Shown: in pieces, positions 1 through 59,630 of the stretch
Numbering within the stretch: position 1 is the stretch's first letter
Layout: each line of letters starts with the position of its first letter
IMG/VR virus record: IMGVR_UViG_3300043466_001759
Coordinates: 8,859-72,858 of that record
DNA from: a virus
Direction: 5' to 3' (one strand)
DNA: 64,000 bases
The notes under the pieces: generated by a model
The model's database searches: none
What the model saw: only the letters and a program-made list of their open reading frames with translations
Told to the model about the DNA's origin: nothing
Made by a program: the position numbers and the translations under genes

Positions 1-129
1 TGTTGAAATGGATTTTGACTTTGGCAGTTGTGTTGTTCTGTGGATGCGCAGGACAACGAACACGGATCACACTAACGAGGGTTCATGGCGAACCATCAAT
101 CAGTATCGAGCTTGAGGAACGATAGGAAA

Positions 130-339
130 ATGAGCGACAGAAACACTACTGAAAAAAAGACATGCGAATGCGGCAGGGTATCAACCTATTTCGTGTCCCC
201 TAACAATGGCAAAAAGCTGTTGCGAGGCTTTTGCGACTCATGCTACGAAGATAGATGCCGCAGAGAATCCAACAAACGGCTGGACAGGATCCAGAAGTTT
301 AGAGATCGCAATCAATACGACAGGGAAGATCAATCCTAA
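130..339 (+). CDS. small Zn-finger-like hypothetical protein
   Basis: CECG...CDSC cysteine pairs; AGGA RBS before ATG at 130. Confidence 0.55.
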   Translation: MSDRNTTEKKTCECGRVSTYFVSPNNGKKLLRGFCDSCYEDRCRRESNKRLDRIQKFRDRNQYDREDQS

Positions 340-348
340 AGAACTAAT

Positions 349-558
349 GGCTTGTCACGGCAATGCCAGTCTAGGCGGGATAAGTCCTGGCGTGACGTGG
401 CAAGGCAAGGCAAGGCAAGGTTTCATGCATCGGCTGAAAAGTCGGTGCGTGGATTTACTGCGGCCCGGCGAGACGGAGCAAGTCGCGATCGGGCATGGCG
501 TAGCATGACGAGGCAAGGTTTCAACTGCTATCAGCGAGGCAGTTTTTAAGTTCGCTGA
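349..558 (+). ncRNA. GGY-NN pentamer guide array, block 1 (unit 1: 349-451; unit 2: 462-558)
   Basis: Unit 1: ggctt gtcac ggcaa tgcca gtcta ggcgg gataa gtcct ggcgt gacgt (ggcaa)4 ggttt, then hairpin 424-451 with GAAA loop. Unit 2: ggccc ggcga gacgg agcaa gtcgc gatcg ggcat ggcgt agcat gacga ggcaa ggttt, then a predicted pseudoknot at 523-558. Confidence 0.85.
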
Positions 559-588
559 AACATGGTTTTGTGCGTTAAGGATTTCAGT

Positions 589-1146
589 ATGAAGAAGGCA
601 ATTTGCAAATTACAGTCAGTCAGTCCGTATTCTCAATCGAGGTACATCCAAGAGAAAAGAACGCGAGACGAAACGCCAGCAGCGTTCGAAGAGCGATCCT
701 GGAAGCAACGGTGCCATTGGAACGAAAATGGCAATCTTTACATTCCTCCAATGTCGTTCAAAAACTGCTTGAGTGAAGCAGCAAAATACAAATCCATTCA
801 GATCCCAGGAAAGGGAAAGTCGACATACACCAAACACTTCGAGGCTGGGATTCTTGTTGTCGAGCCTCTAGTTCTCGACATTACGAAAGACAGTATCCAA
901 CACGAATGGCTGCACGTCCCCTCTGACGGCAAGCGTGGAGGAACAAAGCGTGTTGAAAAGTGTTTTCCGTTGATTCAGTCTTGGTCTGGCACTGTCGAGT
1001 TCTTGGTGTTGGATGAGACTATCACTGAGGATGTTTTCACAGCACACCTCCAAGACGCAGGGAGCTTTATTGGTATCGGTCGCTTCCGTCCGCGTAACAA
1101 CGGCTTTTACGGTCGTTTTGAGGTAAAGTCGGTGAGTTGGAAATAA
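589..1146 (+). CDS. stand-alone RAMP/Cas7-like RNA-binding protein (putative Vipr-type effector)
   Basis: N-terminal strand KLQSVSP; YIPPMSFKNCLSEAA resembles the Cas7/Csm3 IPGSSxKG motif; C-terminal Gly-rich loop GIGRFRPRNNGFYGRFEV; AAGGA RBS before ATG 589; flanked by arrays. Confidence 0.8.
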   Translation: MKKAICKLQSVSPYSQSRYIQEKRTRDETPAAFEERSWKQRCHWNENGNLYIPPMSFKNCLSEAAKYKSIQIPGKGKSTYTKHFEAGILVVEPLVLDITKDSIQHEWLHVPSDGKRGGTKRVEKCFPLIQSWSGTVEFLVLDETITEDVFTAHLQDAGSFIGIGRFRPRNNGFYGRFEVKSVSWK

Positions 1147-1149
1147 TCC

Positions 1150-1589
1150 GGCAGGGTTAGGCTTTGCGCGTCGCGGCTCGTTGCGGCGTTGTGCGGCAAG
1201 GCAAGACAAGGTTTCATGCATCAGCTGAGAAGTCGGTGCATGGATTGACCTCGGCACGTCTCGTTGGTGCAGGGCAGGGCCCGGCGTGGCGCGGCTAGGC
1301 AAGGCAAGGCAAAGTTTCACATCTGAGGCGAATAGGCTCAGGTGTGAATTGACCGTGGCACGGCGAGGCATGTTATGACTCGGCGCGGCAAGGCAAGGCG
1401 AGGTTTCCTATCTGGGGCGAATAGGCCTAGGTAGGGATTGATTAGGGTTTGGCTGGTCGGATCACGACAGGTCGGGGCTCGGCTAGGTAAAGCAAGGCAA
1501 GGTTTCACAGCTGGAGCGAACAGGTCCAGCTGTGGATTGGACTCGGCATAGTAGGCCGAGGCGGGGCGTGGTAAAGCAAGGCAAGGACT
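1150..1589 (+). ncRNA. GGY-NN pentamer guide array, block 2 (units 3-7: 1150-1242, 1253-1346, 1357-1435, 1441-1534, 1540-1589)
   Basis: Five tandem units with strict 5-nt periodicity; units 3-6 end in ..RGTTT plus a 10-12 bp hairpin (loop GAGA or GCGAAYAGG) followed by RATT; unit 7 ends GGCAAGGAC plus a T run with no hairpin. Confidence 0.9.
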
Positions 1590-1612
1590 TTTTTACAAAG
1601 GGAACAAAGGGA

Positions 1613-2089
1613 ATGTTATTTGAAAAATCATCAGACACAAAGATCTTAGAGGACACGCTTAGGCAGGTTGCAGTAGGTGACATGGCCACTTACGAAAACC
1701 TGTCAAAAGCAATTGGAAGGGACGTTCGAACGTTTGCGATCGCTGCACTACGTACAGCCCGACACGGACTCATTAAGGAAGGGTTCGTGTTCGGCGTCGA
1801 GCAGAATGTCGGACTCGTCAGGCTTAACTCTACAGAGATCGTCAAGAGCACAGAAATGGATCGAAAGTCGGTGCATCGAAAGGTTAATCGCACACTCAGC
1901 AAACTAAGCGTTGCGAAGTACGATGAGCTCGATGACGAGAATAAAAGAAAACACGTCACGATGTCAGCGCAGATGGGTGCTCTGGCGATGTTTTCAGCGA
2001 AGACGGCAACCACGAAGATTGAATCTAAAGTCACTGGCGACTCGAAAGTATTGCCAGTCGGCGAAACACTGAAATTGTTTGGTGGGTAA
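1613..2089 (+). CDS. hypothetical basic protein embedded between guide arrays (possible DNA-binding accessory)
   Basis: ATG 1613 after AAAGGGA; the upstream ORF-track extension runs through array unit 7; ATYENLSKAIGRDV looks like a wHTH helix pair. Confidence 0.8.
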   Translation: MLFEKSSDTKILEDTLRQVAVGDMATYENLSKAIGRDVRTFAIAALRTARHGLIKEGFVFGVEQNVGLVRLNSTEIVKSTEMDRKSVHRKVNRTLSKLSVAKYDELDDENKRKHVTMSAQMGALAMFSAKTATTKIESKVTGDSKVLPVGETLKLFGG

Positions 2090-2093
2090 ATAC

Positions 2094-2312
2094 AACACGG
2101 CGGGGTTGAGCCGGGCGAGTTAAAGCCAGGAGCGGTGCAGTAACGCAAGACAAGGTTGCTTGTCGTGAGCGAATAGGTCACGACAAGTATTACGCATGGC
2201 ACGTCTTCACTTGAAACGGCGGGGCGATGCGAGGTGGAGCGTGTCGGAGTAAGTCTCGACAGGTCGCCACAAGGCAAGGTTGCTTACCACGAGCGAACAG
2301 GTCGTGGTAAGC
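2094..2312 (+). ncRNA. GGY-NN pentamer guide array, block 3 (unit 8: 2094-2188; unit 9: 2193-2312)
   Basis: In-register pentamers ending in CAA-GGTT plus 11-bp hairpins gcttgtcgtga-GCGAATAGG-tcacgacaagt and gcttaccacga-GCGAACAGG-tcgtggtaagc. Confidence 0.88.
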
Positions 2313-2341
2313 ATTTATAGATCTCAATCGGAAAGAACACG

Positions 2342-2971
2342 ATGGCTAACGTTACAACAACCGACAAGATTCCAGCGTTCTACACACTGGAGAAGATTTA
2401 CGAGTCGATCGATAAAGTTAACGACAGCTGCGCCGATGGACAGCGAATTGATTTCTGGATTGCTGGGGGATCCGTTAGCGATCTGGCCAGAGGGAGGCGA
2501 TTTAAGGACATCGACGTGTTCAGCCCTAAGCCTGTGGAGCTAGTTGAAAAGCTCTCTAGAGCCTACGGAAAACCGTATTCAGAGATCGTTGGAATGTTTG
2601 CTAACTTCCGATTGGGAAAGCATACGGTTCAAATCATAACTGGATACACACCAGCAAGCGAAGACGAAGTAATCGAGCTATTTGACTTCACAGCTGTTTG
2701 CGGGGCGTACTCACCCGATAGATTCGTATGCCACGAGAGATTCTGGCAAGACAACTGCACGAGGCGATTAGTGATCAATAATTTACCAAAGCCTCTATCG
2801 ACACTAGATCGATTGGCTAAGTACTGTCGCAAAGGCTTCAAGCACTGCCCTGTCGGGTTGTCGCGAGTCATAAAAGCCATCGCAGCTGAAAACATCGACT
2901 GGGACAACCCTAGTCAAAACATAATCAACTTTTACCCAAATGGCCACATACGGTTTTTTGGGATCGATTAA
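2342..2971 (+). CDS. Pol-beta-fold nucleotidyltransferase (CCA-adding/poly(A) polymerase head-like)
   Basis: WIAGGSVSD...KDIDVF (hGG..D, DxD) and LFDFT motifs. Confidence 0.75.
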   Translation: MANVTTTDKIPAFYTLEKIYESIDKVNDSCADGQRIDFWIAGGSVSDLARGRRFKDIDVFSPKPVELVEKLSRAYGKPYSEIVGMFANFRLGKHTVQIITGYTPASEDEVIELFDFTAVCGAYSPDRFVCHERFWQDNCTRRLVINNLPKPLSTLDRLAKYCRKGFKHCPVGLSRVIKAIAAENIDWDNPSQNIINFYPNGHIRFFGID

Positions 2972-3003
2972 TCAACGCTTTATTTTTATTGAAAGGGAAA
3001 CCA

Positions 3004-3495
3004 ATGCTTGTATTAGGAAGAAAAGTCGGAGAGTCAATCACTATCAACGGCGATACCGTGGTAACAGTAAAGAAGCACAGCAGCAAGATCTTTTTGGCGA
3101 TCGAAGCTCCCGATGACGTATCGATCAAACGAACAGAATTACTAACCATAAAAAGAGACGATGAAACAGATATCAAAGCTATCTTACGATTGGATTGTCG
3201 CTCTCAGGAATTCCCTAGCGAAGAATGGTTGCAGTCACTCGGATTTGTTATCAACGAATCTGAGCATGCTCTTTTTGCTACAGCATTACTGGACGACTTC
3301 TCGGGCAATTGCCATCCTGCGCGTGTCGAGCTCAGGCTTATGCTTTTTGCCGATCAGACTGACGAGTGGGTCACTGACGTTGTGTCATACGATGCAAGTG
3401 GGACTGCGTCTTCAGTTGGTCTGGTAAACTCCTGGTGCAAGACCAAGGCTGATGTCATTCGACTTGGCAAAGCCCTCGGTCTTAAAGCTTGGTGA
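3004..3495 (+). CDS. csrA: CsrA-domain protein with long C-terminal extension
   Basis: MLVLGRKVGESITINGD...IEAPDDVSIKRTEL is a typical CsrA signature, followed by about 105 extra residues. Confidence 0.8.
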   Translation: MLVLGRKVGESITINGDTVVTVKKHSSKIFLAIEAPDDVSIKRTELLTIKRDDETDIKAILRLDCRSQEFPSEEWLQSLGFVINESEHALFATALLDDFSGNCHPARVELRLMLFADQTDEWVTDVVSYDASGTASSVGLVNSWCKTKADVIRLGKALGLKAW

Positions 3496-3558
3496 GTAGA
3501 GGAGCCTGCGGAACCGTCTCTTGAGTATCCTAAAAACACACTGGAGCTACAAGACTGT

Positions 3559-16641: not shown

Positions 16642-19600
16642 TTAATTGGTAAATACTTTTCTTAACTGACGGAGCCTGAGACTCAGCCCTTCCTTGTAGA
16701 CTACGACGCCTTTCTTCGTCTCCTTAGCCGATCCATAGTTATCTTCCCAGTGCTCTATCAACAGCCTCCTGGCTTCAGTCATGCTGATGCCAGATTTCTT
16801 GAGAGTTTTCATGTATTCATCTCGAGAAGTGACAGCGTCTTTGTAAGCCTGATCGCTCTTGTAGTTTTTGCGGGATGGATTAGCAGATGCCGCATAGACT
16901 AGACTCTGTTTCTTTTTCTGCTGAGCGTCCCTCGCTTGCTTCTTTTGAGATCCGCTTAGGCTATCGCTGTACGCAAGATCCTTGTCATCCCATTTCATGC
17001 CTCTCAAGTCTTTATCAAATAGCTCCTTCTTTTCCTCGTCGCTTGCTCCTGAATACTCAGTGCGAGGACCATAGGTAGAAACCGACACTCCAAAGAACGC
17101 CTCGAGAGACGCTAACGTACCGCTAACGACTCCAAGCTCTTTCTCGGCTGCAGCTATTTCCTTCCATGTTAAAGGTGTGAGACGAGATCCGATTATGTGC
17201 TTAGGCACTGCCAACGGATCTCCCTCTTTTGCTATGTTCCTGCCTACGGCATCTTTTCCAGAGACCCACTCTAATATCGATGCTGGACCTGTACCTAGCT
17301 TGTACCTAGCGAAATTAATAAGGAAGTCCGCTCCGGTCTTTCCACCGTATTGAACATCTTCACCGTAAATCGATTTGATCTCGCCACTGCTGGTCTTTAT
17401 TGTTCCAGTTAGTAACCTCGAAGCTAAAACAACAGCTGGCATTAAACCACCATCATCTTTGAATCGCGTCTCTCCAACCTTCATAACCCAGGCATCACTA
17501 GATCTTGGATCCCATTCAATGGTGGGCTCCTTCTCTTCGTCGTCCCCAGCGAGTAGTGAGTAGGCAAAGTAACCCATGGCCATTTTCGTAGCGTGCCCCA
17601 TGAGAGTTTGAATGTACAGCTTTGCCAGCGACACTCTCATTCCACGGTCGGCATTCCATTGACCTATCCATGAGGGGGTAGCCAACTGGAGCGGCAAAAT
17701 GAAGTCGGCTTGAATTCTGGACCACGTCCATCGTCTTGCCAAGAAAAAGAAATCTAGCCACGGACTTCCACCTCTAAGGCCAGTCCCTCGACCGCTAAAG
17801 ATGTTTGTTATTCTGCCAGCCTCTTTGATGTCGCTATCAGTCCACTCCATATTTGTGCCGAAAAACTCTCGAGCTGCCAGTGTGTCTCGCTTCTGAATAT
17901 CGTACAGATCAGCCTTCATGATATTCGCGAAGGTCCGGTTCCCTCGCTCGAAAGCTCCGTACGCACCAACCCAAGCGCGAAACGGAAGCAACCACGGAGT
18001 CTTGGTGTTCTCGAGCCATCGGATAACGGCCGACTGGTACATCTCTTCCAGCTGAGCTCTTGGCCCATCTTTCTTAGTGAACTCAACCTCTGCCTGCAGA
18101 TACTCCTTCGCATTTGGACGGCTCTCCAGGCTTTCCACCGAAGCCAGAGCCAGCCGCTGACTCCACACTGCCGGTATCGCCTCGACTGCCGCCATGAACG
18201 CTCTGACTGGATGCGATCGCGAATAGAAAAAGCCCTGCCTCAGAAAGAACGACAACTCCATGCCAAGCATCAGAGTCTTGGGTATTAAAGAGGTTGCTTC
18301 CAGCAATCCGTATTGCATCCACTGACCAGCATTCCAGGTTGCTCGTTTCGCCTTTTCGATCTCATACATCGCCTCATACTTTATCTTTTCGATCTCGAGG
18401 TTCTTGTCGAGGATGTCCTCTTCTGTGATCGTCCGCTTATTGCGTGGAACTGGAAGTATCCCTGACTTTGCTTCGTCACGTCGCTTCTCCCAGAACGCCA
18501 GACGCCTCTCCTGGCCTTTTCGGTATCGCTCCCAGTACTTCGCTTCTTCACGAGCTTGGTAGACAGGGCTCGCCTTCCTGGCTTCATCACGTACCTTCCT
18601 GAGATCAGCCAGCTGGGCCCGTAATGACTCAAGAACGCTAGAAGTAGGAACCTTGCCCTTTACCGCAGGAGCCCACGTTCCATCAGTCAGTGACTTCGTG
18701 TCAGCTTTTATATCATCGATTTGAGATTGCAGCATTCGCTCTGCCATGGCCAGCCGCTGCTCCTCAGTCATCGGCTTTCGACCACCCTGTGCAGGTATTG
18801 CTCCACCGTCATCATCGTAGCGACCCTGCTCAGCCTCAGCTGCTGCTTGCCTTGCCGCTCTTAGACGATCCTGCCACATCTTGAGCTGCGACTGGACCTC
18901 AGCAGCAACTAGGCTAGGCTTCTTGGTTGAGTCGACCTCCTTGCCATCCTTTACTTGCTGAAGCTTTTCTTTTAGTTTCTCGATAGCCTTAAGAGCTCGT
19001 TGTGTCTGCTGCTCAGCTGAAAGCATCCTCTGCTTCTTGGACCTCGGGAATATTTTTTCGTACTCAGTCTTCAAGTCGTCGCGTTGCTTCCTCTTCGCCT
19101 CGAGCTGGCTCCTTATTGAAGCTAACTCTGCGTCTGGCTTCAATGGAGTGCGATCGTTAACCGACCTTGCCAGCACAGTACGACTCTCGATAGCTTCTTC
19201 CAGTGCCTCAATGTCTTTGCTTAACATCTCGAGCCTGTTCTTGCCAGCAGTCTTGGCTGTGCTCAGCGCAGACTTGAGTTGGCCCTCACGAGACTCCGTT
19301 GAAACCGGAAGCTCTTTTTTGAGCTTATTGAACTCAGCAATCAGATCTCGCTCGATGCTATCTGGAGTAGGCTGTTCTCGTCCTGTTGATTTCGGTAGCA
19401 AGTTCTGGTCTCGAAGTCGACGAGCAACCTCTTCTGGACTTACACCATTCTTAAGCCACTCTTCACTTTGAGCGATGGCCTTAATGGTGTCCTCGATCTT
19501 TAAGGACTGACGAGTCTTTCCTCGAATAGCTCGAGTCTTTACTGCAATCTCCTCTTTGTTCAGTGGACGCCATGAACCGTAGTCAGACATGGCCTGCATA

Positions 19601-22600
19601 GTGTCGTATTCTGAAATACCAGGAACTTCGATCGACAACTGCGCATGAACAACATCGACAACTTCCCTCCAAGTTTCATTGGTCGCTCCATAACCGGCCT
19701 CAATCGCTAGGGTCATCAACTCTTTCGCCCTCGCTCCAATAGCAGACGGCTCAGGATCATCCCCGATCGGAGACTCTACCTTCTTCTTGCTATTGCTCTC
19801 CGCCCAGGCGTCTTTGATTACTGACATCTGTTCAAGAGTCACGTTTGGCATGTTGGCTTTAACTTGCGACTCCAACTCTAGGACAGAGCTAACTCCCATC
19901 TCTCGCAGAGCGTTAACAATACTGTCAGCTGCTGACTTAATGTCAGTGCCTTGCCGCGACGGAGAGTAACGAATGTCAGGATTCGTCTTATCAAAATCGC
20001 CTGTGTTAGAAGTGGCAGACTTCACCTGGGATGATTCAACAACAAACCAGGACTCTCCCGATCCATCGTTTTCTTCATATACCTTCACTCCATCGTAGCC
20101 ACGCTCTTTCATTCTTTCGACAACCTTAGGATTGTCCAACGCATGCCAGTCTATCATGCCGTCGATGAATATCTCGTTGATCCAGTCCCCATCGCTGTCC
20201 ACCTCGGTGTTCGAAACACCACCTCCAGTGTCTATCCACCGCTTGCCACCTTCTTCGTAGATCATTGGCTCTAAGATGTACTCAGCATCTTCAAAAGCCT
20301 TTGCAGAAGCAGCCTTAACTTCTTCACTCGATCGACTACTGATACCGATCACCTTTGGATCCATCAGCCTGTTTTGAACAGAAAGATAGACTGGCAAGAC
20401 ATTCTTTCCGTACTGCCTAGCATCGTCTTCGCTAGGGCTAAAGAAAAACCCGCTAGTCTCTACATCAAACGACGAGAGCATTACTGATCGTTGCGATGTC
20501 CTGCCTGACTCAAACACAGAGAACTTTTCGTTGGTTCCGTGATACACAACTAGAGGGTTACCATCCTCATCGACAACCTTGCTGTCACCGAACCACTTCT
20601 TAAAGGCAGCTGTGTCGATCTGTGATCCGCCAGCACCTCCCTGCGCGTCCTCCCAAGCTTTAATAGCGTACTCGAGAGGATCCAGTATGACCTTTGACGC
20701 ATCAAGTAAGTTCGTGACCTCAGACCCGATGTCAGGATTGCTAGAGACATACTTCGGAAGATACTTAACAAAGGAGTTGGCAAGAGCCTTGTAATCCGAT
20801 GGATCGCTAAATCGGTCCTCATCGAACTCGACTCCTGACTCACTGGCTATTTGCTCGAGCATCATGCGAGTGCCTCGAGACCTGTCTCTGAATAGTGCTT
20901 GGACTCCTTCGGCCCAATTCCTTTCTTGCAAGTCAGATTGGACAGTCCACTTGCTAAACATCCTCATGAGCTTACTGTCTGCCTTGAACGGATTCTCGTC
21001 TCCGAACACAGTCCCTAGAACAGCTATGTCTTCATCACTCAGTTTAGACTCAGGAATGGCTTTCATTATCAGCGGCATATACGCTCGCAACCACTCGTCT
21101 CGAGACACAGTAGATGGGTCTGGAAGCGTGTCGGTGCCAAATCCAAAACCGTTCACATTGGTGATCGCACTGCGACTAACAGCTGCGCGACCAGATGATC
21201 CGCCGCCCCATGCGTTTTGAAATGCTGCAAAACCATCCGCAACCTTTTTCATAAGCGTAGCTCGCTTAGTACCGATCTTCTCTCGAGGAGGATCTGTCTT
21301 TGGTACTGACGCCGCTTCAGCTTTCTTTCTTGCGATTGCTTCCTTGGCAAGTTTTTCCGCAAGGGCAGCTGTTTCCGCTTCTAGCTTATCTATACGCTCA
21401 GCCATCTCGGCGTACTTAGCGATCTGCTCTGGGCTCGGGTCAGCTTCAACGTGGCTTGTGTGCTGTCTGGTTAACCCTTCCACTGAGAAGTCAGACGCCA
21501 ACTCGGCCTGAGCGGCATGCCCTGCGTAGCCCCATTCCGAATGCCCTCTCTGAACAGTCCTGTTGAGATCTAGCCATTCCTTCCTGTCGCTTCCAGAGAT
21601 GTCTCCTTCATTCTTGAGCTCTCTAATACGAGCGTTAAGTATCGCATCTTCCATGTCCGTCAACGGTCTAGGCTTAGCGTTCATCTCTGAGATGATCTCG
21701 TACGGACGGCCTGGATTAGCTGCGAGTTCTGCAATCGCTTTCTTTTGCCTGTCCTTGACCTTTCTTGGACCAAACCATTCTCTAGGAGAGTCACCTACAG
21801 ATTTTCTCTGTCCTTCAGTCCTGGCGTACTTTGTTCCAGTAGTTTCCGGTAGTGAACTCTGCCCAGGCTTCGCTAACCCTCGTTCCTCCATAGCTTTCAT
21901 AAGCTTGGCGAACATCTCGTCTTGTCGGCTTGGAGAATAACGGATATCTGGATCAAACTTGTCGAACGTGCCTCGATTGCCAGTCGCTGACTTGATCTGC
22001 GAAGAATCAAAAGCAACAACTTCCGCGAATGGCAAGTCTGACTGATTGACTATCACCCCATCGTAACCAGCTTCTTTAAGCCTCTTGGTTATCTCGATCG
22101 ACTTCTCTGGGTCCAGGTGTGACGTCGGATCACCATCGTACACATCGTTAAATACCTTAGCTACTTTTGCGTCAACATAGTCCAGCTTGCCGCCAGACAT
22201 AGACAGAGCGTCTGCAGTGTTGTCTCGATAGGTGTCATTGATGATCGCAGGGTTCTTAATGTCAACATAGACCTCCAGAATGCGAGATCCATCACCCCTG
22301 CCCGCGTACCTACCAGCACCTTCGCTGTCTGTTGTAAAGTAATACCCCTTTCCGTAGTAACCTCCGTCAGTAGACGTTTTCGCCTTTCCTTCGAAAACGT
22401 TGAAGTCCCTCTTAGTTCCGTGATACAAAGAAAGAGGCTGTCCGTTCCAAACAATCTTAGAGGAGTTCTCAGGATCATTCTCCCAATCTCCGAACCATTT
22501 CTTAAAAGCTGGAGAGTCGACCTGACGACTCGGAGAATAGCGAATCGACTCTCCTTTTGTTCCTTTGGGAGAGATCCGAACACCGTTCTTCTCAAGCTCG

Positions 22601-25600
22601 GCGCGGAGTTGAGGCGTTACCGTGTTCTCTGGTATAGATAGCCTGCTGGGATTGACAATATCTGCAATCTTTTTAGCAACTTCAGCATCAGGCACAATGC
22701 GTTTGATTCGCAGATATCTTGAAAGAACCACTTCCCTGCCTCCAGGGAGCTTAGATGCAACAACGCCAGCTGTCCATTTGTTTGACCCGACCTTCTTACT
22801 AGACCCTTCTGCCTGATACCCACTGGTCATCTCACTTGCCGGAACTTCGACTTCAACAATGACCATCTTCGGTCGCTTGACCCCATCGTTGTACCAGGAA
22901 GCCGTAAACTGATCGTTAAGAGGTATCGGAGAAGCATGGAAGTACGGAGCATATGCTGCCCAGGTTGTTCCCTTTGGTTTCTTCAATGGGAATTTGCCAG
23001 CATACTTGCCAGTCTTAGGGACCAAGTCAGGCCTCTCCTCAGCAACCATCCACTTGCCTACAGGCTCAGGCTTCCTTAAAGACAGCTTCTTACCGTCGTT
23101 GATCTTCGAGGACATTGGCGGGTATAGATTCCCGTCAATCATTGTCATAGCGCGATACAACGTCACCGTCTCGCCTTTATCTAGCTCCTTAGCTAATTCA
23201 GGCCGTGCGATTGCGTACCGAAGACCGGAGTTAAGATCTCGACTGTCCAGTGCTGTCGCGTTTTCAATCGCGGCCGATCGCTGCGACCTGACTGCTTCGT
23301 CGATGTCGTCGAAAGCTTTACCTTCGCCGCTATTGTGACGATAGATGTCGGTTCGCTGAGGATCGTAGGCCATGAAGACCACGTCTGGCTCGCCGTTGTT
23401 GAAGTCTGAGTACTCCTCCTTGCTCCAGCCACTCGGTGCAAACTCATCGCTCCACTTGGCACGAGAGATCACTCGGAACCCATTGGCACTGTAAAGAACA
23501 GGAAGGAACGTATCGAAGGCGTCCAGAGTGTTACCGCCCTCTTCCACAGCAAGACGCATCATCGAATAACTAACGCCACGATGTGCGTTATTGGCCGTGT
23601 TGAAAACTGACACAATGTCAACCACACCGGCCTCTCCAGAGTCCTTCAAGGCGAAACCTGCCTTGCCATCTTCCGTCAAGAATAGCCGCATATCACGGTA
23701 GTCTTGCTCCGGATAAACATAGACAGATGCACCGAGCTTACCCTGGCTTTCACGCGCCGCATTTATAGCCGCCGTAAACTGTGACGCAGACTTCTCTGAC
23801 TTCTGTAGCTCTACGAAACTGGGAGCGGCAACCCCAACATCAGCCCACTCGGCAGCATCAGCCTCGTAGGTCGCAACTACGCCATATCCGCCCAGCGTTC
23901 GGCTTTCTTCTGATCTACTCCAAGCTCTTCCATTAGATCCAACACGGCTCCGGATGGTGGCTGTTGCTTCCCTGCCGCTTCTTTTTGCAACTGCAGCTCT
24001 TTCTCTAGTTTTTCTGGACCTGTCTTCTGACCCGTCTTTTTCTGTGGTTCCATCAGTACTCTCCCTATCTGTTGTTTCTGAATAATCTGCCGCACGACCT
24101 TCCGTCCAGGTCCACTCTGGCATCAAGCCAGTCTTCTGATCAGCAAAGGTCGTGTCCTCTACTTTTGCAGTACGATTCTTGTCTCCGTGCGGACCATAGT
24201 TCAACCACGAGTTTTGACCTCGGGTCTCGCTCGTGATCGCACCAACAGCATCACCCGTAAACAGCCTTACGTGAGCCTGCCAAGCGTTCTCTTCGCCTCG
24301 AGCTCTAAACCCAGCCCCTTCTAGACTATGGCCAAATGCGTCGTGAACGGCTCGGAACAAGTCGTTCGCCGTAACTGGTTTCATTTGCCCGTCCAAACCA
24401 CCGGAAGGCCATTTGATACCAGTATCTTCTAGCAACGGGTTGTCGTTGACATCAAGATCGCTGGTTCCAAATCCGTCCGATGTCGGGAATACGCCCATCT
24501 GCTTGTTTTGTCGCAGATCTCGCAAAGCGTTATACGGGCTTGACGCGTACTCAGCATTACTTGGCACATTCAAGTCCATAAACCAGAACTTGTACCCAGC
24601 GTCTTCCAGAGCCTTGTACTGAGCAGTGGTCTGCCTAATCAGCTCTTTGTACGCGGCCTTAACCTTTGGATCCTGGGGAGCATGAGCCATTTGCTCGTAA
24701 GCATCGGCTATCCTCTTAGCTCTCTCAGGATCTACCTGAACGTACTCTGCTTGTCGCTTTAGGTCGATTCCGTTTTCTTTTGCGTATCGCTCGGCGACTG
24801 CAACGACCTCGGGGTCCGGCCCGTTAATGCCCGGGACCGATGGCGAGCCTGCAAGAGGCGAATTCTTCCTAAGGTCTTTTCGTCCTCTTCCGTCTCCGGC
24901 CGATTCGGGTCGTTGTCGCCCCACTCCTGCTCTGGTGCCATCTGCACCGGATCCGGCATATTCTCCGCCATCCAACTCTCTACCGCTGCCAGCGTCCTCT
25001 CCTGATTGAACAGTCGATTGTGCTCGTCCTGTTGCTTCTGGAGAGACTCGCTGTCCGGAAGAAATCGACTCTCGTCGACCATCTCGCTTCGACGCTCTGT
25101 GTTCTTGGCTGACCTTTTTTGCTGCTTGTTCATAATCTAGTTTTTCAATCTCCTTAGATAAACCGAGTTTTCCCCACAACTCTTTCTCATAGTACCACAT
25201 CAAAGCCTGGAAGTCAGCTTTAGTAATGTCCTTTCCGATAACTTCCTTTACTTGCTTAATCGCCAGCTCAGCTACCTCCCTCTGAACCTCCCTGTCTTTT
25301 CCTGACTTTGCTATTTCGTACAACCCATAGGCGTTCACGACTACGTTTTTCGCGGCTTTGAATTCAGTAGTATTAACTTCAGTTCGCCTCGCTATGGCGT
25401 CTCGAGCCATTCCAGCTATCGACTCGCTGCTGACTTTCCCGGCTACCTTCGAGTTTCCTATCTTTTCTGACAGTTGACCATAAAACTTCTTTTCGTTGGC
25501 ATTTAGTTTAGACGGATCAACTGGAGCGAATTGCTGTATCGAGCCGTTTTCAATAGATCCAAGTTCATCGGCTTTTTTGATTGCCGACACGTAAGAACTT

Positions 25601-28600
25601 ATGGCTGTGCTTGTGAACACTGAAGCGTTGTGCGACTTGAGCATTCTTGCGTACCTGAGTGCTGCGCGGTCATTCCTCGCAACATCTTCGCGACTCATAC
25701 CAAACTTCTTCAAGTACTTGTCTGATAGATTTTTACGAAGCCCGTTATCTATGGACTTTTGAGCGTTCTCAACATTTACTGATTCAAGCTTGCCTCTTAA
25801 CCTTCCAATTGTCCTGGACCACCACAAGTCCATAGTGATAGTGTCAAATCTATAATTCAGGTTGTTGTAGAAGCTTCCTATTTTGGCTCCGAAAATCATG
25901 GATCCATAAACTCTAGCTGTAACCAGCTCGCCACCAACCTTGAATGATTCCTTAGAAATGCTAATGCTTGGATCAATGCCATCTTCTACTGTAAATCCAT
26001 GTTTAGAAAGCTGAGCTGCTGTCAATGGAGTGGCTAGAAAAGCCTCTACCCTCTCCCATCCAAACTTCTTAACAAGCTTGTCCATAGTGTCTAGGCTAGA
26101 CTCAACACCAGACCTATGCCCCCACCCTGACAACGTCCCTGTTTTCTTCCATCGCTCGTATATTTCCACCGCCATGCGGAAGTTCGGCAGAACATCTTGG
26201 CCGTCGCTACTGATAGCAAGCGCAGCCTTGAACATCATCTGATGTTTACCGGGAGCGACGATCTCTGGGAATATGTCCGCCATGTGATCCAGAGCGCCGG
26301 TGACCTTTTCATTATACCAACCGATAGCCCCCTCAGCCCAGTCCATTTTGAGCGCGTGCAAAGCCTCCTTGGCTAGCTGGTTTGCCATCCTTGCTTTTGC
26401 AGACTTGGAATGCTTAGAGTTGGGCGAAAGGGAATGACCAGAAGCCTTCTTGTAAAGCGATTGCAGCCACTGAGCCACATCCCACTTAGTTCTCTTAAGA
26501 TTGTTCTTCTGTGAATCGCTCCTGGCTTCTAGATCCTGGGGAATTAACGAAGTATCTATTCCGTTGGAAATGATATCCTCTGTTAAAAGCCACGGCTTAT
26601 TCTTTTCTACTCTTAAGCCATAAACAGCCATGTCTGGATCAACCCCAGCAAGCTTTGCTTCTCGTGCTATCGCTTGCTTTCGCTTTTTATCCCAAGACCT
26701 GAGACGATCCAAACCCTCTGGAGTTAGCTTGCTTCCAACAACAAGCCCATTGCTCTTAAGGTTCTTAATTCGAGAAGGAGTGATGTCTGACTTAACAAAG
26801 TCACGCTTCGAATGCTTGTTTGCAATTGCGATTAAAGCATCGTGCTCGTCTGGAGTTGCTGATCTAGCTGACTCTCTGATTTCTGCAACCCTGCTTGCCT
26901 CGCTGTCTTGATTTTCACTGCTTCTTGCAGGCGATGCTCTCCCACCTGAAGAAGGCGATATGCCATTACTTTCCATCGCAGACTCAATAGCCAATCGAAC
27001 TTGACCAGCTAGCGTGTCTGGCTCAGCGAACCGCAATGCCTTACGCAACCACCTACCGATCTTAGCAAGCAACCCCGGCTTGCTATTGCCTAACTCGTTC
27101 CAGAAATCGAAATCGCCAGCTCTGTCTTCAAGATAACGCGACAGCGATTCTTCTTGCCGAATGTCCTCGTTAGAGTTGAACTCGTTAATGAAATCGGAAA
27201 GGTCTTTTGTTTTTTGACTGAGATCACCCTTTTCTTTGAGCGATCCGTCCTTGTTGAATATGTCGTACTTAAGACCAGCTTTTAAGGCAGCTTTAAGAAG
27301 ATCTTGCCCAGAAACATCCTTGTCGACATCGACGGCCTTGCCAGACCTTTTAATGTCCGCCCTAACACTCGATAGCAATTCTCTATCGAAATCGCCAATG
27401 TAGTCTTCACCAGCCTTCTTTAATCCGTCTTGTTCTTTGCTAGATTCGTGTTTCGAAACCCAGTTGTAAAGCTGATTCCAAGCCTCTGGGTTTCCTACTT
27501 TCATTGCGTGAAATGCCTCGTGCGCAAAAAGGCCCCAGGTCATCCACTTTGAATTCTCACCCCTCTCCCTATTCATATTGGTTACGTAGTTGCGATTGAT
27601 CCAAATCGTCATGGTACTTGGCCGGAAAAGTCCAGGAAGACTCAGATCTCTTCCGTTGACAAATCGCATGCTAACGCCCATCTTGTCAAGGATCTTCACC
27701 TGCTGCTTTTCGTCGTCCGAGAGTTCTTCCGATGAGACTAGCGTTACATTCCCGAGCTGTTTAGGAACATCCTCCTTTGCAGCCTGTCTATTGCGACTAG
27801 ACGCTGCCTTCTTCGGTTTAGTCTTAGACTTCCTGGCAGGAGATATGGCGACAATGGCATCCACAAGACCTGGATTGTTGACCAGGTCATTAACAGTTAC
27901 TTCTGTACCTAGACTTTCAGTCAGACTCTTGGCAATTGCCTCTCGTTGACCAGGGCTTAACTCATTGAGGTACTTCTCCGCCACAGCCTTCTTTCTGGAT
28001 TCTTCTTTAGGCTTGCTTGCCTCATTAGAATCTCTCTTGGGCCTAGCTGGAGGCTTAGGTGCTTCTTTTTGTTTTGATGAAGAAGAGTCAGACGACGGAG
28101 TCCCCGCCGTCGCCTGACCTTCAGGTTTCTCAGGGCTTACTTGCCCTTCGGCTTTGGTTTGGGCATTGGTTTGCCCTTCCCTCCGCTCTTCGGTTTGCAC
28201 TTCACTAGGATCACCTCCTCTCTTGGTCTGTGGAGCATCTTTATCCTCCTGGTTGCGAACAGGTTCCACTGACACTGCGTCAGAAGACTTGGCTTCAACT
28301 TGAGCAGGGGATTTGTCGCCACTGCTTGTGCGTTGTTTCAATGGTGGCGGTGTAGCTGACTTTGGAAGTAGAGGTGGTGTCGATCCAGTCTTAGATGGTG
28401 GCGGCACGCTCTCGCTAGACTTTGCGTTAAGCTTGTTTTCGCGTCCCATGCTTTTCTTGGATTCCTTCGGCGCTGACGTCGTGTCAGTTGACTTCTTGTC
28501 GCTTGGCTTAGCCTGACTGAAATTCAGAGCCTCTTCCAGCACGCCACGAATCTGAGCTGTCCTCTCCTTGTCCTCGACAAAACTGCCGTTCTGCATCTTT

Positions 28601-59518: not shown

Positions 59519-59630
59519 AGGCTAGAGTTGGAGTCGAACCAACACGATCGCTACCATCAGGTCATGACTCCCTACTCTTGCGACACACTATCACCTTGCG
59601 GGTGACGCTCTACCTTTGAGCTACCTAGCC
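59519..59630 (-). tRNA. tRNA-like RNA with 5-nt anticodon loop and ~47-nt variable insertion
   Basis: GGCTAGG/TCTAGCC acceptor; GCTC-AAAGGTA-GAGC D-arm; TCACC-CGCAA-GGTGA; GTTGG-TTCGACT-CCAAC. Confidence 0.7.

Follow-up and report, generated by a model that had tools for sequence, protein, structure and literature searches.

Organization of the array

Positions 349–2320 of the window, the whole 64,000-nt stretch of DNA analysed here, hold a VIPR-type locus on the + strand of a 72.9-kb (72,858-bp) phage contig, consisting of nine vrRNA units and two candidate protein-coding genes. VIPR systems combine a minimal RAMP protein, Vipr, with an accessory gene, vap, and guide-bearing vrRNAs; the available text of the preprint describing them places them mostly in phages and prophages, counts 664 loci, sorts the systems into types I–VII and gives a vrRNA 9–16 YNNGG repeats (at least 4) and a conserved 3′ tail (10.64898/2026.04.26.720920). 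The features of the window locus are as follows.

349–453, + strand: vrRNA 1; tract 349–420 (10 variable NN, then 4 × ggcAA), tail hairpin 422–453
458–544, + strand: vrRNA 2; tract 458–518, with a terminator-like hairpin and T run at 523–544 replacing the usual tail
589–1146, + strand: vipr candidate; 185-aa RAMP protein with predicted Cas7-like fold and C-terminal glycine-rich loop GIGRFRPRNNGFYGRF; alternative start ATG at 562
1150–1244, + strand: vrRNA 3; tract 1150–1211, tail hairpin 1213–1244
1248–1348, + strand: vrRNA 4; tract 1248–1314, tail hairpin 1316–1348
1352–1437, + strand: vrRNA 5; tract 1352–1403, tail hairpin 1405–1437
1441–1536, + strand: vrRNA 6; tract 1441–1502, tail hairpin 1504–1536
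1540–1595, + strand: vrRNA 7; tract 1540–1586, ending in GGACTTTTTT (T run) without a hairpin tail
1613–2089, + strand: vap candidate; 158 aa, without a significant Pfam family
2099–2189, + strand: vrRNA 8; tract 2099–2155, tail hairpin 2157–2189
2193–2313, + strand: vrRNA 9; tract 2193–2279 (15 variable NN and 2 handle AA), tail hairpin 2281–2313

Each of the nine tracts is built of 10–18 pentamers in a single phase, a G-N-Y triplet followed by a dinucleotide (NN). Of the 119 pentamers in all units together, 90 begin with G, 74 have G in second place and 116 have C or T in third, and the last two bases vary; the consensus is G-N-Y and not strict GGY. All nine tracts carry GGCAAGGCAAGG or a one-base variant of it at their 3′ ends, and a hairpin tail follows the tract in seven of the units, units 2 and 7 being the exceptions. 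The periodicity is local: in a scan of the 64 kb, stretches of 10 pentamers in which 6 or more show G..C in phase were confined to 337–2267, and no comparable periodicity was found elsewhere on the 72.9-kb contig. With at most one mismatch, 43 copies of the motif AAGGCAAGG are found where 17.8 would be expected; 17 of the 43 fall on the + strand within 402–2279.

The seven tails align as TTYC-stem-GCGAAYAGG-stem-GGATTG with a mean column identity of 72%. RNAalifold predicts 13 base pairs across them, 11 of which show a compensatory change (both sides altered and the pair kept in at least one sequence), which argues for an RNA structure under selection and against a DNA repeat. The units adjoin one another in three blocks, an arrangement that suggests processing from longer transcripts.

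Tandem Repeats Finder calls no repeats other than short GGCAA runs, an Rfam scan found no family at the array, and a blastn search of window 1–3500 against phages gave no match. The near-identical direct repeats and unique spacers with cas genes that are the hallmark of CRISPR do not occur at the locus, and Pfam scans of 42 window ORFs (8 + 34) detected no other cas family. A search of sequencing runs finds the stretch in 18, all of them DNA and none RNA; 17 carry the label lake water metagenome, and the other is labelled simply metagenome.

The candidate Vipr protein, its neighbours and its relatives

The 185-aa protein encoded at 589–1146 matches no Pfam family but does match phrog_4652. An AlphaFold2 model computed from a 77-row alignment reached a pLDDT of 97.4 and a pTM of 0.90. 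Foldseek compared this model with the PDB and gave 77 matches at E ≤ 1e-3, led by 8z4j_J, a chain of a type VII CRISPR–Cas complex (E 3.5e-8, TM 0.57), which we take to be its Cas7, and followed by Csm3 and Cmr4. In a wide search with VIA-align, which is independent of Foldseek, the top 46 rows were all CRISPR RAMPs, the best with Z of 11.1 and 11.0. Invariant or near-invariant residues (G162, G164, R167, G172, G175 and R176) cluster in the C-terminal glycine-rich loop GIGRFRPRNNGFYGRF (the G-loop). As modelled, then, the protein appears to be a minimal RAMP with a glycine-rich loop, as is characteristic of Vipr.

Homologues of this protein are abundant, numbering 3661 at E ≤ 1e-3 (90% clusters) and 1243 representatives at 50% identity; one is labelled as coming from a Porticoccaceae MAG. 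A tblastn search of cultured phages recovered 118 records. Most are Felixounavirus, and the match covers 95% of the query at 24% identity. The homologue in the Felixounavirus phage tootiki is 25% identical over 179 aa (pairwise E 1e-12), aligns through the G-loop and has GGY/NN tracts on either side; phage DSL-LC04 has a vipr homologue and GGY/NN tracts arranged in the same way. Within the G-loop the window protein has the triplet R-F-R where tootiki has D-W-R, residues that would correspond to D177-W178-R179 of Escherichia phage SUSP1, which are named in the accessible part of the structural preprint (10.64898/2026.04.26.720927).

Closer relatives came from IMG/VR, where vipr is present in all 80 related loci at 56–79% identity. 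A strict detector called 193 tracts on the vipr strand in these 80 loci and the window's own contig. No guide is common to the window and the 80 relatives, the best ungapped overlap being 10 of 14 bases; the NN are thus hypervariable, as the VIPR family requires. The relatives keep triplet positions 1 and 3, and position 2 differs array-wide (GGC, GAC or GTC), which suggests that Vipr variants may read different triplets. Arrays of GGC/NN occur in the window and at related loci L143, L147, L193 and L205, arrays of GAC/NN at L134, L140, L151, L179, L203 and L204, and GTC- or GTT-rich arrays at L135 and L136. Two relatives also carry in-phase tracts of 39 pentamers (L149:9121–9315 and L205:11642–11836), far above the 9–16 described. 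About 4.3 kb separates the L149 tract from vipr, and such tracts may be fused or staggered vrRNAs.

Downstream of the vipr candidate, the ORF at 1613–2089 shows no similarity to the neighbour gene in tootiki, and in 50 of the 80 related loci a homologue of it directly follows vipr in the same orientation. Judged by its sequence and position, it is a plausible adjacent accessory gene (vap). With this gene, the locus shows every sequence-level VIPR feature that could be checked, and we regard it as a VIPR array with very high confidence; the general inference of the original prediction, a gapped-guide RNA, was accordingly correct and had already been published.

Other features of the contig are recorded here for completeness. 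Directly 3′ of vrRNA 9, a 209-aa ORF at 2342–2971 (+) has a weak match to the poly(A) polymerase/CCA-adding head domain (PF01743, E 0.027) and a match to phrog_4400 (E 1.4e-11); this nucleotidyltransferase-like ORF lies beside vipr in none of the 80 relatives. The next ORF, at 3004–3495 (+), is CsrA-like over residues 1–48 (PF02599, E 8.6e-12), its C-terminal ~110 residues match no known family, and it too accompanies vipr in none of the 80. On the − strand, window 16642–31230 is a single ORF of ~4860 codons, roughly one fifth of the contig, and window 59519–59630 scores as an Rfam tRNA over 112 nt (43.7 bits, full model) that is not in the ARAGORN output and may hold an insertion or intron; ARAGORN tRNAs elsewhere are tRNA-Pro, Met and Ile(TAT). 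The terminase large subunit, TerL, is 25–29% identical to those of cultured phages, and the portal protein has no match.

The guide of unit 9 and its candidate targets

By analogy with SUSP1, one Vipr protomer would bind each pentamer, hide its G-N-Y triplet and present its NN; the resulting filament would pair its NN, in order, with one of the two strands of a DNA duplex, every third target base being skipped, and the outcome would be silenced transcription of a competing genetic element. As far as the available portions of the preprints extend, VIPR NN pair with double-stranded DNA with a 1-nt skip that falls overwhelmingly at the codon wobble position, and the targets, which may be on either strand, belong to competing phages and satellites (10.64898/2026.04.26.720920). 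In the structure, each repeat holds one Vipr protomer, GGY is sequestered, N4N5 pair with target N1N2, x3 is extruded and the complex forms an R-loop triplex (10.64898/2026.04.26.720927). That the NN act as the guide has been shown experimentally in the homologous system (10.64898/2026.04.26.720920, 10.64898/2026.04.26.720927, available portions). For the window locus we infer expression, ribonucleoprotein formation and silencing on this model, and the identity of the target proposed below has the same standing.

Unit 9 contains 18 in-phase pentamers at window 2188–2277, the phase being anchored on the terminal GG: tatTA cgcAT ggcAC gtcTT cacTT gaaAC ggcGG ggcGA tgcGA ggtGG agcGT gtcGG agtAA gtcTC gacAG gtcGC cacAA ggcAA. 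Counted from 2193, a TA lies before the series, which then runs through 15 variable NN and two handle AA. The triplets of this unit are the most degenerate of the array, with G at position 1 in 11 of 18 and Y at position 3 in 17 of 18. The re-derived pentamers agree exactly with the series given in the original prediction (AT,AC,TT,TT,AC,GG,GA,GA,GG,GT,GG,AA,TC,AG,GC), and its decoding as codon positions 1–2, [IM]-T-[FL]-[FL]-T-G-[DE]-[DE]-G-V-G-[KN]-S-[RS]-A, was reproduced. With the skip at the wobble base, the unit 9 NN spell a β-strand and then a Walker A loop, TG[DE][DE]GVGKS, making a P-loop-coding stretch of an ATPase gene the most likely target. A P-loop NTPase gene is, in our view, a reasonably probable target of unit 9, and would be carried by a rival phage, satellite or prophage.

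The P-loop reading exceeds chance. When the NN of unit 9 are permuted, GxxGxGK[ST] arises at a frequency of 0.0005, and when nine-guide arrays are generated at random from the clade NN composition, at 8e-5; the looser GxxxxGK[ST] arises at 0.006 and 0.0023, respectively. Because Walker A was chosen post hoc, these figures are to be loosened by the number of recognizable motifs. The openness of the guide itself is no test of frame, since an NNx reading never holds an obligatory stop, and the antisense reading of unit 9 is equally open.

Matches in public DNA lend the P-loop reading independent support. The 9-NN core of unit 9 (T-G-[DE]-[DE]-G-V-G-[KN]-S) occurs at 128 places, 72 metagenome loci and 56 species-genome loci. 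At 114 of these the guide frame is open for at least 100 codons, and at 103 the ambiguous residue is Lys rather than Asn. Among 27 sampled products, 23 match P-loop NTPase families (AAA_22, AAA_16, AAA_25, Sigma54_activat, nSTAND3, Ras and others) and four match none.

A Walker A decoding is found in 2 of 195 clade guides, both in the sense direction, against roughly 0.05 expected (an estimate from the per-array chance rate). One is unit 9 and the other, at L176:3570–3660 in a related locus, reads A-G-[DE]-P-[HQ]-[IM]-G-K-S-Y-V-A, a Walker A loop; its exact 11-NN pattern has 0 matches in viral contigs. On a milder form of the holB reading discussed below, for which this count speaks, the guides of the clade would by preference target catalytic motifs of universal conservation, Walker A among them.

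The size and position of the skipped base were assessed in two ways. First, NN3–13 of unit 9 were searched with at most 3 mismatches in one fixed sample of 151 genomes, the backward pattern serving as control. A gap of 1 nt gave 23 places (control 6), compared with 4 (control 2), 2 (control 2) and 7 (control 1) at gaps of 0, 2 and 3 nt, a comparison for which the phylum was picked through the holB match described below, itself one of the 23. Examined by eye in frame, the gap-1 places are mostly [FL][FL]TG..G.GK[ST]-like stretches. This is the comparison of gap sizes by which the original prediction proposed to be judged, and it came out for the 1-nt gap.

Second, the 1936 NN in 167 unique clade guides were strand-symmetrised and their composition was compared with that of dinucleotides in long ORFs of the same phages. 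It follows codon positions 1–2 (r 0.82, rho 0.67) more closely than positions 2–3 (r 0.42, rho −0.19) or 3–1 (r 0.00); with only ten independent dinucleotide classes, this fit is supportive and not decisive. Both results favour a gap of 1 nt that falls on the wobble base. The gapped guide with its skipped base on the wobble, as originally claimed, matches the published VIPR rule, and both the codon fit and the gap control agree with it.

Under the structural model, in the form available to us (10.64898/2026.04.26.720927), the further claim that a sense guide pairs with the template strand follows, and unit 9 would pair in that way. At such a site changes at codon positions 1–2 would cost function and synonymous changes would give no escape. 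This blocking of synonymous escape, also put forward in the original prediction, holds as a published principle for codon positions 1–2 but is not new: the available text on SUSP1 describes a guide footprint in step with the codon period of a satellite recombinase and argues that mutational escape is thereby prevented (10.64898/2026.10.15.759431).

The searches turned up no target. The full exact 15-NN pattern, which had been predicted to lie in an NTPase gene, gave 0 in-frame full-length matches in the viral, metagenome and genome contig collections. On the refutation test set by the original prediction itself this counts against a target, so that an NTPase-gene target is something we infer on good grounds rather than a finding. 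In viral contigs, exact searches with NN1–11, NN5–15 and the 9-NN core of unit 9, and with guides 2 and 4, each returned 0 matches, and ten related virus records contained no unit 9 match at up to 3 mismatches. The 195 clade guides, set against 1.17 Mb of related phage DNA, gave 0 exact 9-NN matches at gaps 0, 1 and 2 and 8 at gap 3, the latter probably array remnants that escaped masking.

Nor does the phage appear to target itself. On the source contig no self-target of unit 9 was found, its best gap-1 match being 20/30. For the nine guides taken together, the highest-scoring gap-1 matches to the 72.9-kb contig run from 10/12 to 20/30, and the only self-matches of at least 80% belong to the shortest guides, 5 (12/14) and 7 (10/12), within chance for a contig of this size. 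The available preprint text finds its targets with nhmmer at permissive thresholds, keeping gapless hits and scoring them by NN match (10.64898/2026.04.26.720920). As it describes mismatched targets as common and sets the target threshold at an 80% NN match, and as exact scans are blind to scattered mismatches, the absence of a target is weak evidence.

The alternative that survives best is that unit 9 is a real vrRNA whose P-loop reading is coincidental, its target being something else (antisense coding or non-coding) or the unit being a decoy or decaying guide; we regard this as unlikely, though still to be reckoned with. It draws on the absence of a target from every collection searched, on the post hoc choice of the Walker A motif and on the strand preference of the clade, whose NN fit antisense (r 0.65) above sense (r 0.37), the P-loop reading being sense. 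The degenerate triplets of unit 9 could mark a decaying guide, and decoy and orphan vrRNAs are described in the available part of one preprint (10.64898/2026.10.15.759431). Against coincidence stand the rarity of GxxGxGK[ST] in random arrays, the hydrophobic run that precedes the loop as in real P-loops, the open guide frame at most of the public core matches, the excess of places at gap 1 over the 2–7 at other gaps, and the second clade guide that also decodes to Walker A. On balance we continue to prefer a P-loop-coding target.

A more specific alternative is that unit 9 is aimed at the host clamp-loader gene holB, encoding DNA polymerase III delta prime, and that VIPR thereby shuts down host replication. 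The best full scores among the 128 core places are 27/30, 26/30 and 25/30, and the 26/30 place is unlike a P-loop. The 27/30 place, the closest near-match that 185,579 species genomes yielded, is a chromosomal holB in a MAG titled Desulfobacteraceae (L131:1417–2424, G001:C35), identified by Pfam DNA_pol3_delta2 and sitting between LptD and PSP1; NN3–15 match exactly (26 bases), and it is the sole zero-mismatch NN3–13 place among the 151 genomes searched in its phylum. The runs that contain the phage are labelled lake water metagenome.

Set against this, NN1–2 disagree at the H-A position, which is presumably conserved in clamp loaders. With up to 3 mismatches allowed, only 1 of 58 genomes of the MAG's family has a match, and guides 1, 2 and 4 find no site in the genome that carries this holB. 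The natural VIPR targets given in the available text are mobile elements (10.64898/2026.04.26.720920). A Poisson-binomial null built from 114 unique core places expects about 0.09 matches that good. When contigs of four runs were aligned to the holB locus, they yielded five short, poor pieces that left the locus uncovered, which is no proof of absence. The holB match is probably chance, and silencing of host replication through it seems improbable to us; a P-loop gene of a competing element remains the preferred target.

Relation to known systems and meaning for the clade

The closest counterparts of the window locus are the VIPR systems of Escherichia phage SUSP1 and a Pseudomonas fulva prophage. 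Like them, it is phage-encoded and sets a small single-RRM RAMP with a G-loop beside a small accessory gene, flanked by RNAs made of pentamers (a triplet and a hypervariable NN) with a conserved structured 3′ tail; it likewise lacks a self-target, its NN fit codon positions 1–2 and its guides favour a 1-nt gap. It differs in several respects. The protein is only about 25% identical to an Ounavirinae homologue, the one compared being from tootiki and not from SUSP1 itself, and its G-loop has R-F-R in place of the D-W-R of tootiki. The triplet is G-N-Y, whereas the described systems have GGY. The tail is a plain 12–13-bp hairpin with a GCGAAYAGG loop and not a pseudoknot, a constant GGCAAGGCAAGG handle closes every tract, and the units abut in three blocks.

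Class 1 CRISPR filaments of Cas7, Csm3 or Cmr4 share the fold (Z 9–11) and, in the available account, the assignment of one protomer to each RNA repeat unit, with a thumb insertion that periodically breaks the guide–target duplex (10.64898/2026.04.26.720927). In those filaments the period is 6 on both strands and one guide base is flipped per unit, whereas VIPR sets 5 nt of RNA against 3 nt of DNA and hides three; the window, moreover, has neither a near-identical repeat array nor other cas genes among its 42 ORFs. TIGR-Tas resembles the locus in having phage-borne tandem guide-RNA arrays outside CRISPR, but it uses a Nop-domain protein and contiguous split spacers, and the portion of its description available contains no pentamer code. 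Pfam scans of the 42 window ORFs gave no Nop-domain family.

TRAP, the trp RNA-binding attenuation protein, reads GAG/UAG triplets as an oligomer, with two-base spacers that carry no information. The window tracts resemble its sites in having triplets separated by two bases; they differ in that the two-base units are informative and the protein is a RAMP. That the tracts are protein-binding scaffolds or sponges for an oligomeric RNA-binding protein, with NN as inert spacers, is suggested by this triplet-plus-2 periodicity and by the CsrA-like gene nearby at 3004–3495, but is very hard to credit: the adjacent protein is a Cas7-like RAMP and not TRAP or CsrA, CsrA is syntenic in none of the 80 relatives, the NN composition tracks codon positions 1–2, and in the homologous system, as the available texts report, the NN act as a guide by experiment (10.64898/2026.04.26.720920, 10.64898/2026.04.26.720927). 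We dropped a TRAP-like or CsrA-sponge scaffold on the RAMP fold and the VIPR literature.

The code that the original prediction worked out from the bare sequence, a pentamer guide with one skipped target base on the wobble, is correct and was published in 2026 in three bioRxiv preprints. To it the window adds a well-formed nine-guide VIPR locus from a large freshwater/environmental phage clade (3661 homologues). This clade sets itself apart from the Enterobacteria and Pseudomonas systems by its G-N-Y triplet (GAC or GTC in relatives), its simple covarying hairpin tail and its GGCAAGGCAAGG handle, and its members with differing triplets provide naturally covarying material from which Vipr's way of reading the triplet might be learned.

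Were the holB reading true, a phage would be using VIPR to take over its host by silencing an essential gene of host replication; no such use appears in the available portions of the three VIPR preprints. If guides are aimed at conserved motifs, a single guide would cover many alleles of a gene family. And if the P-loop target of unit 9 is confirmed, the reading of near-invariant codons would extend from one satellite recombinase to Walker A, among the most conserved motifs in biology.
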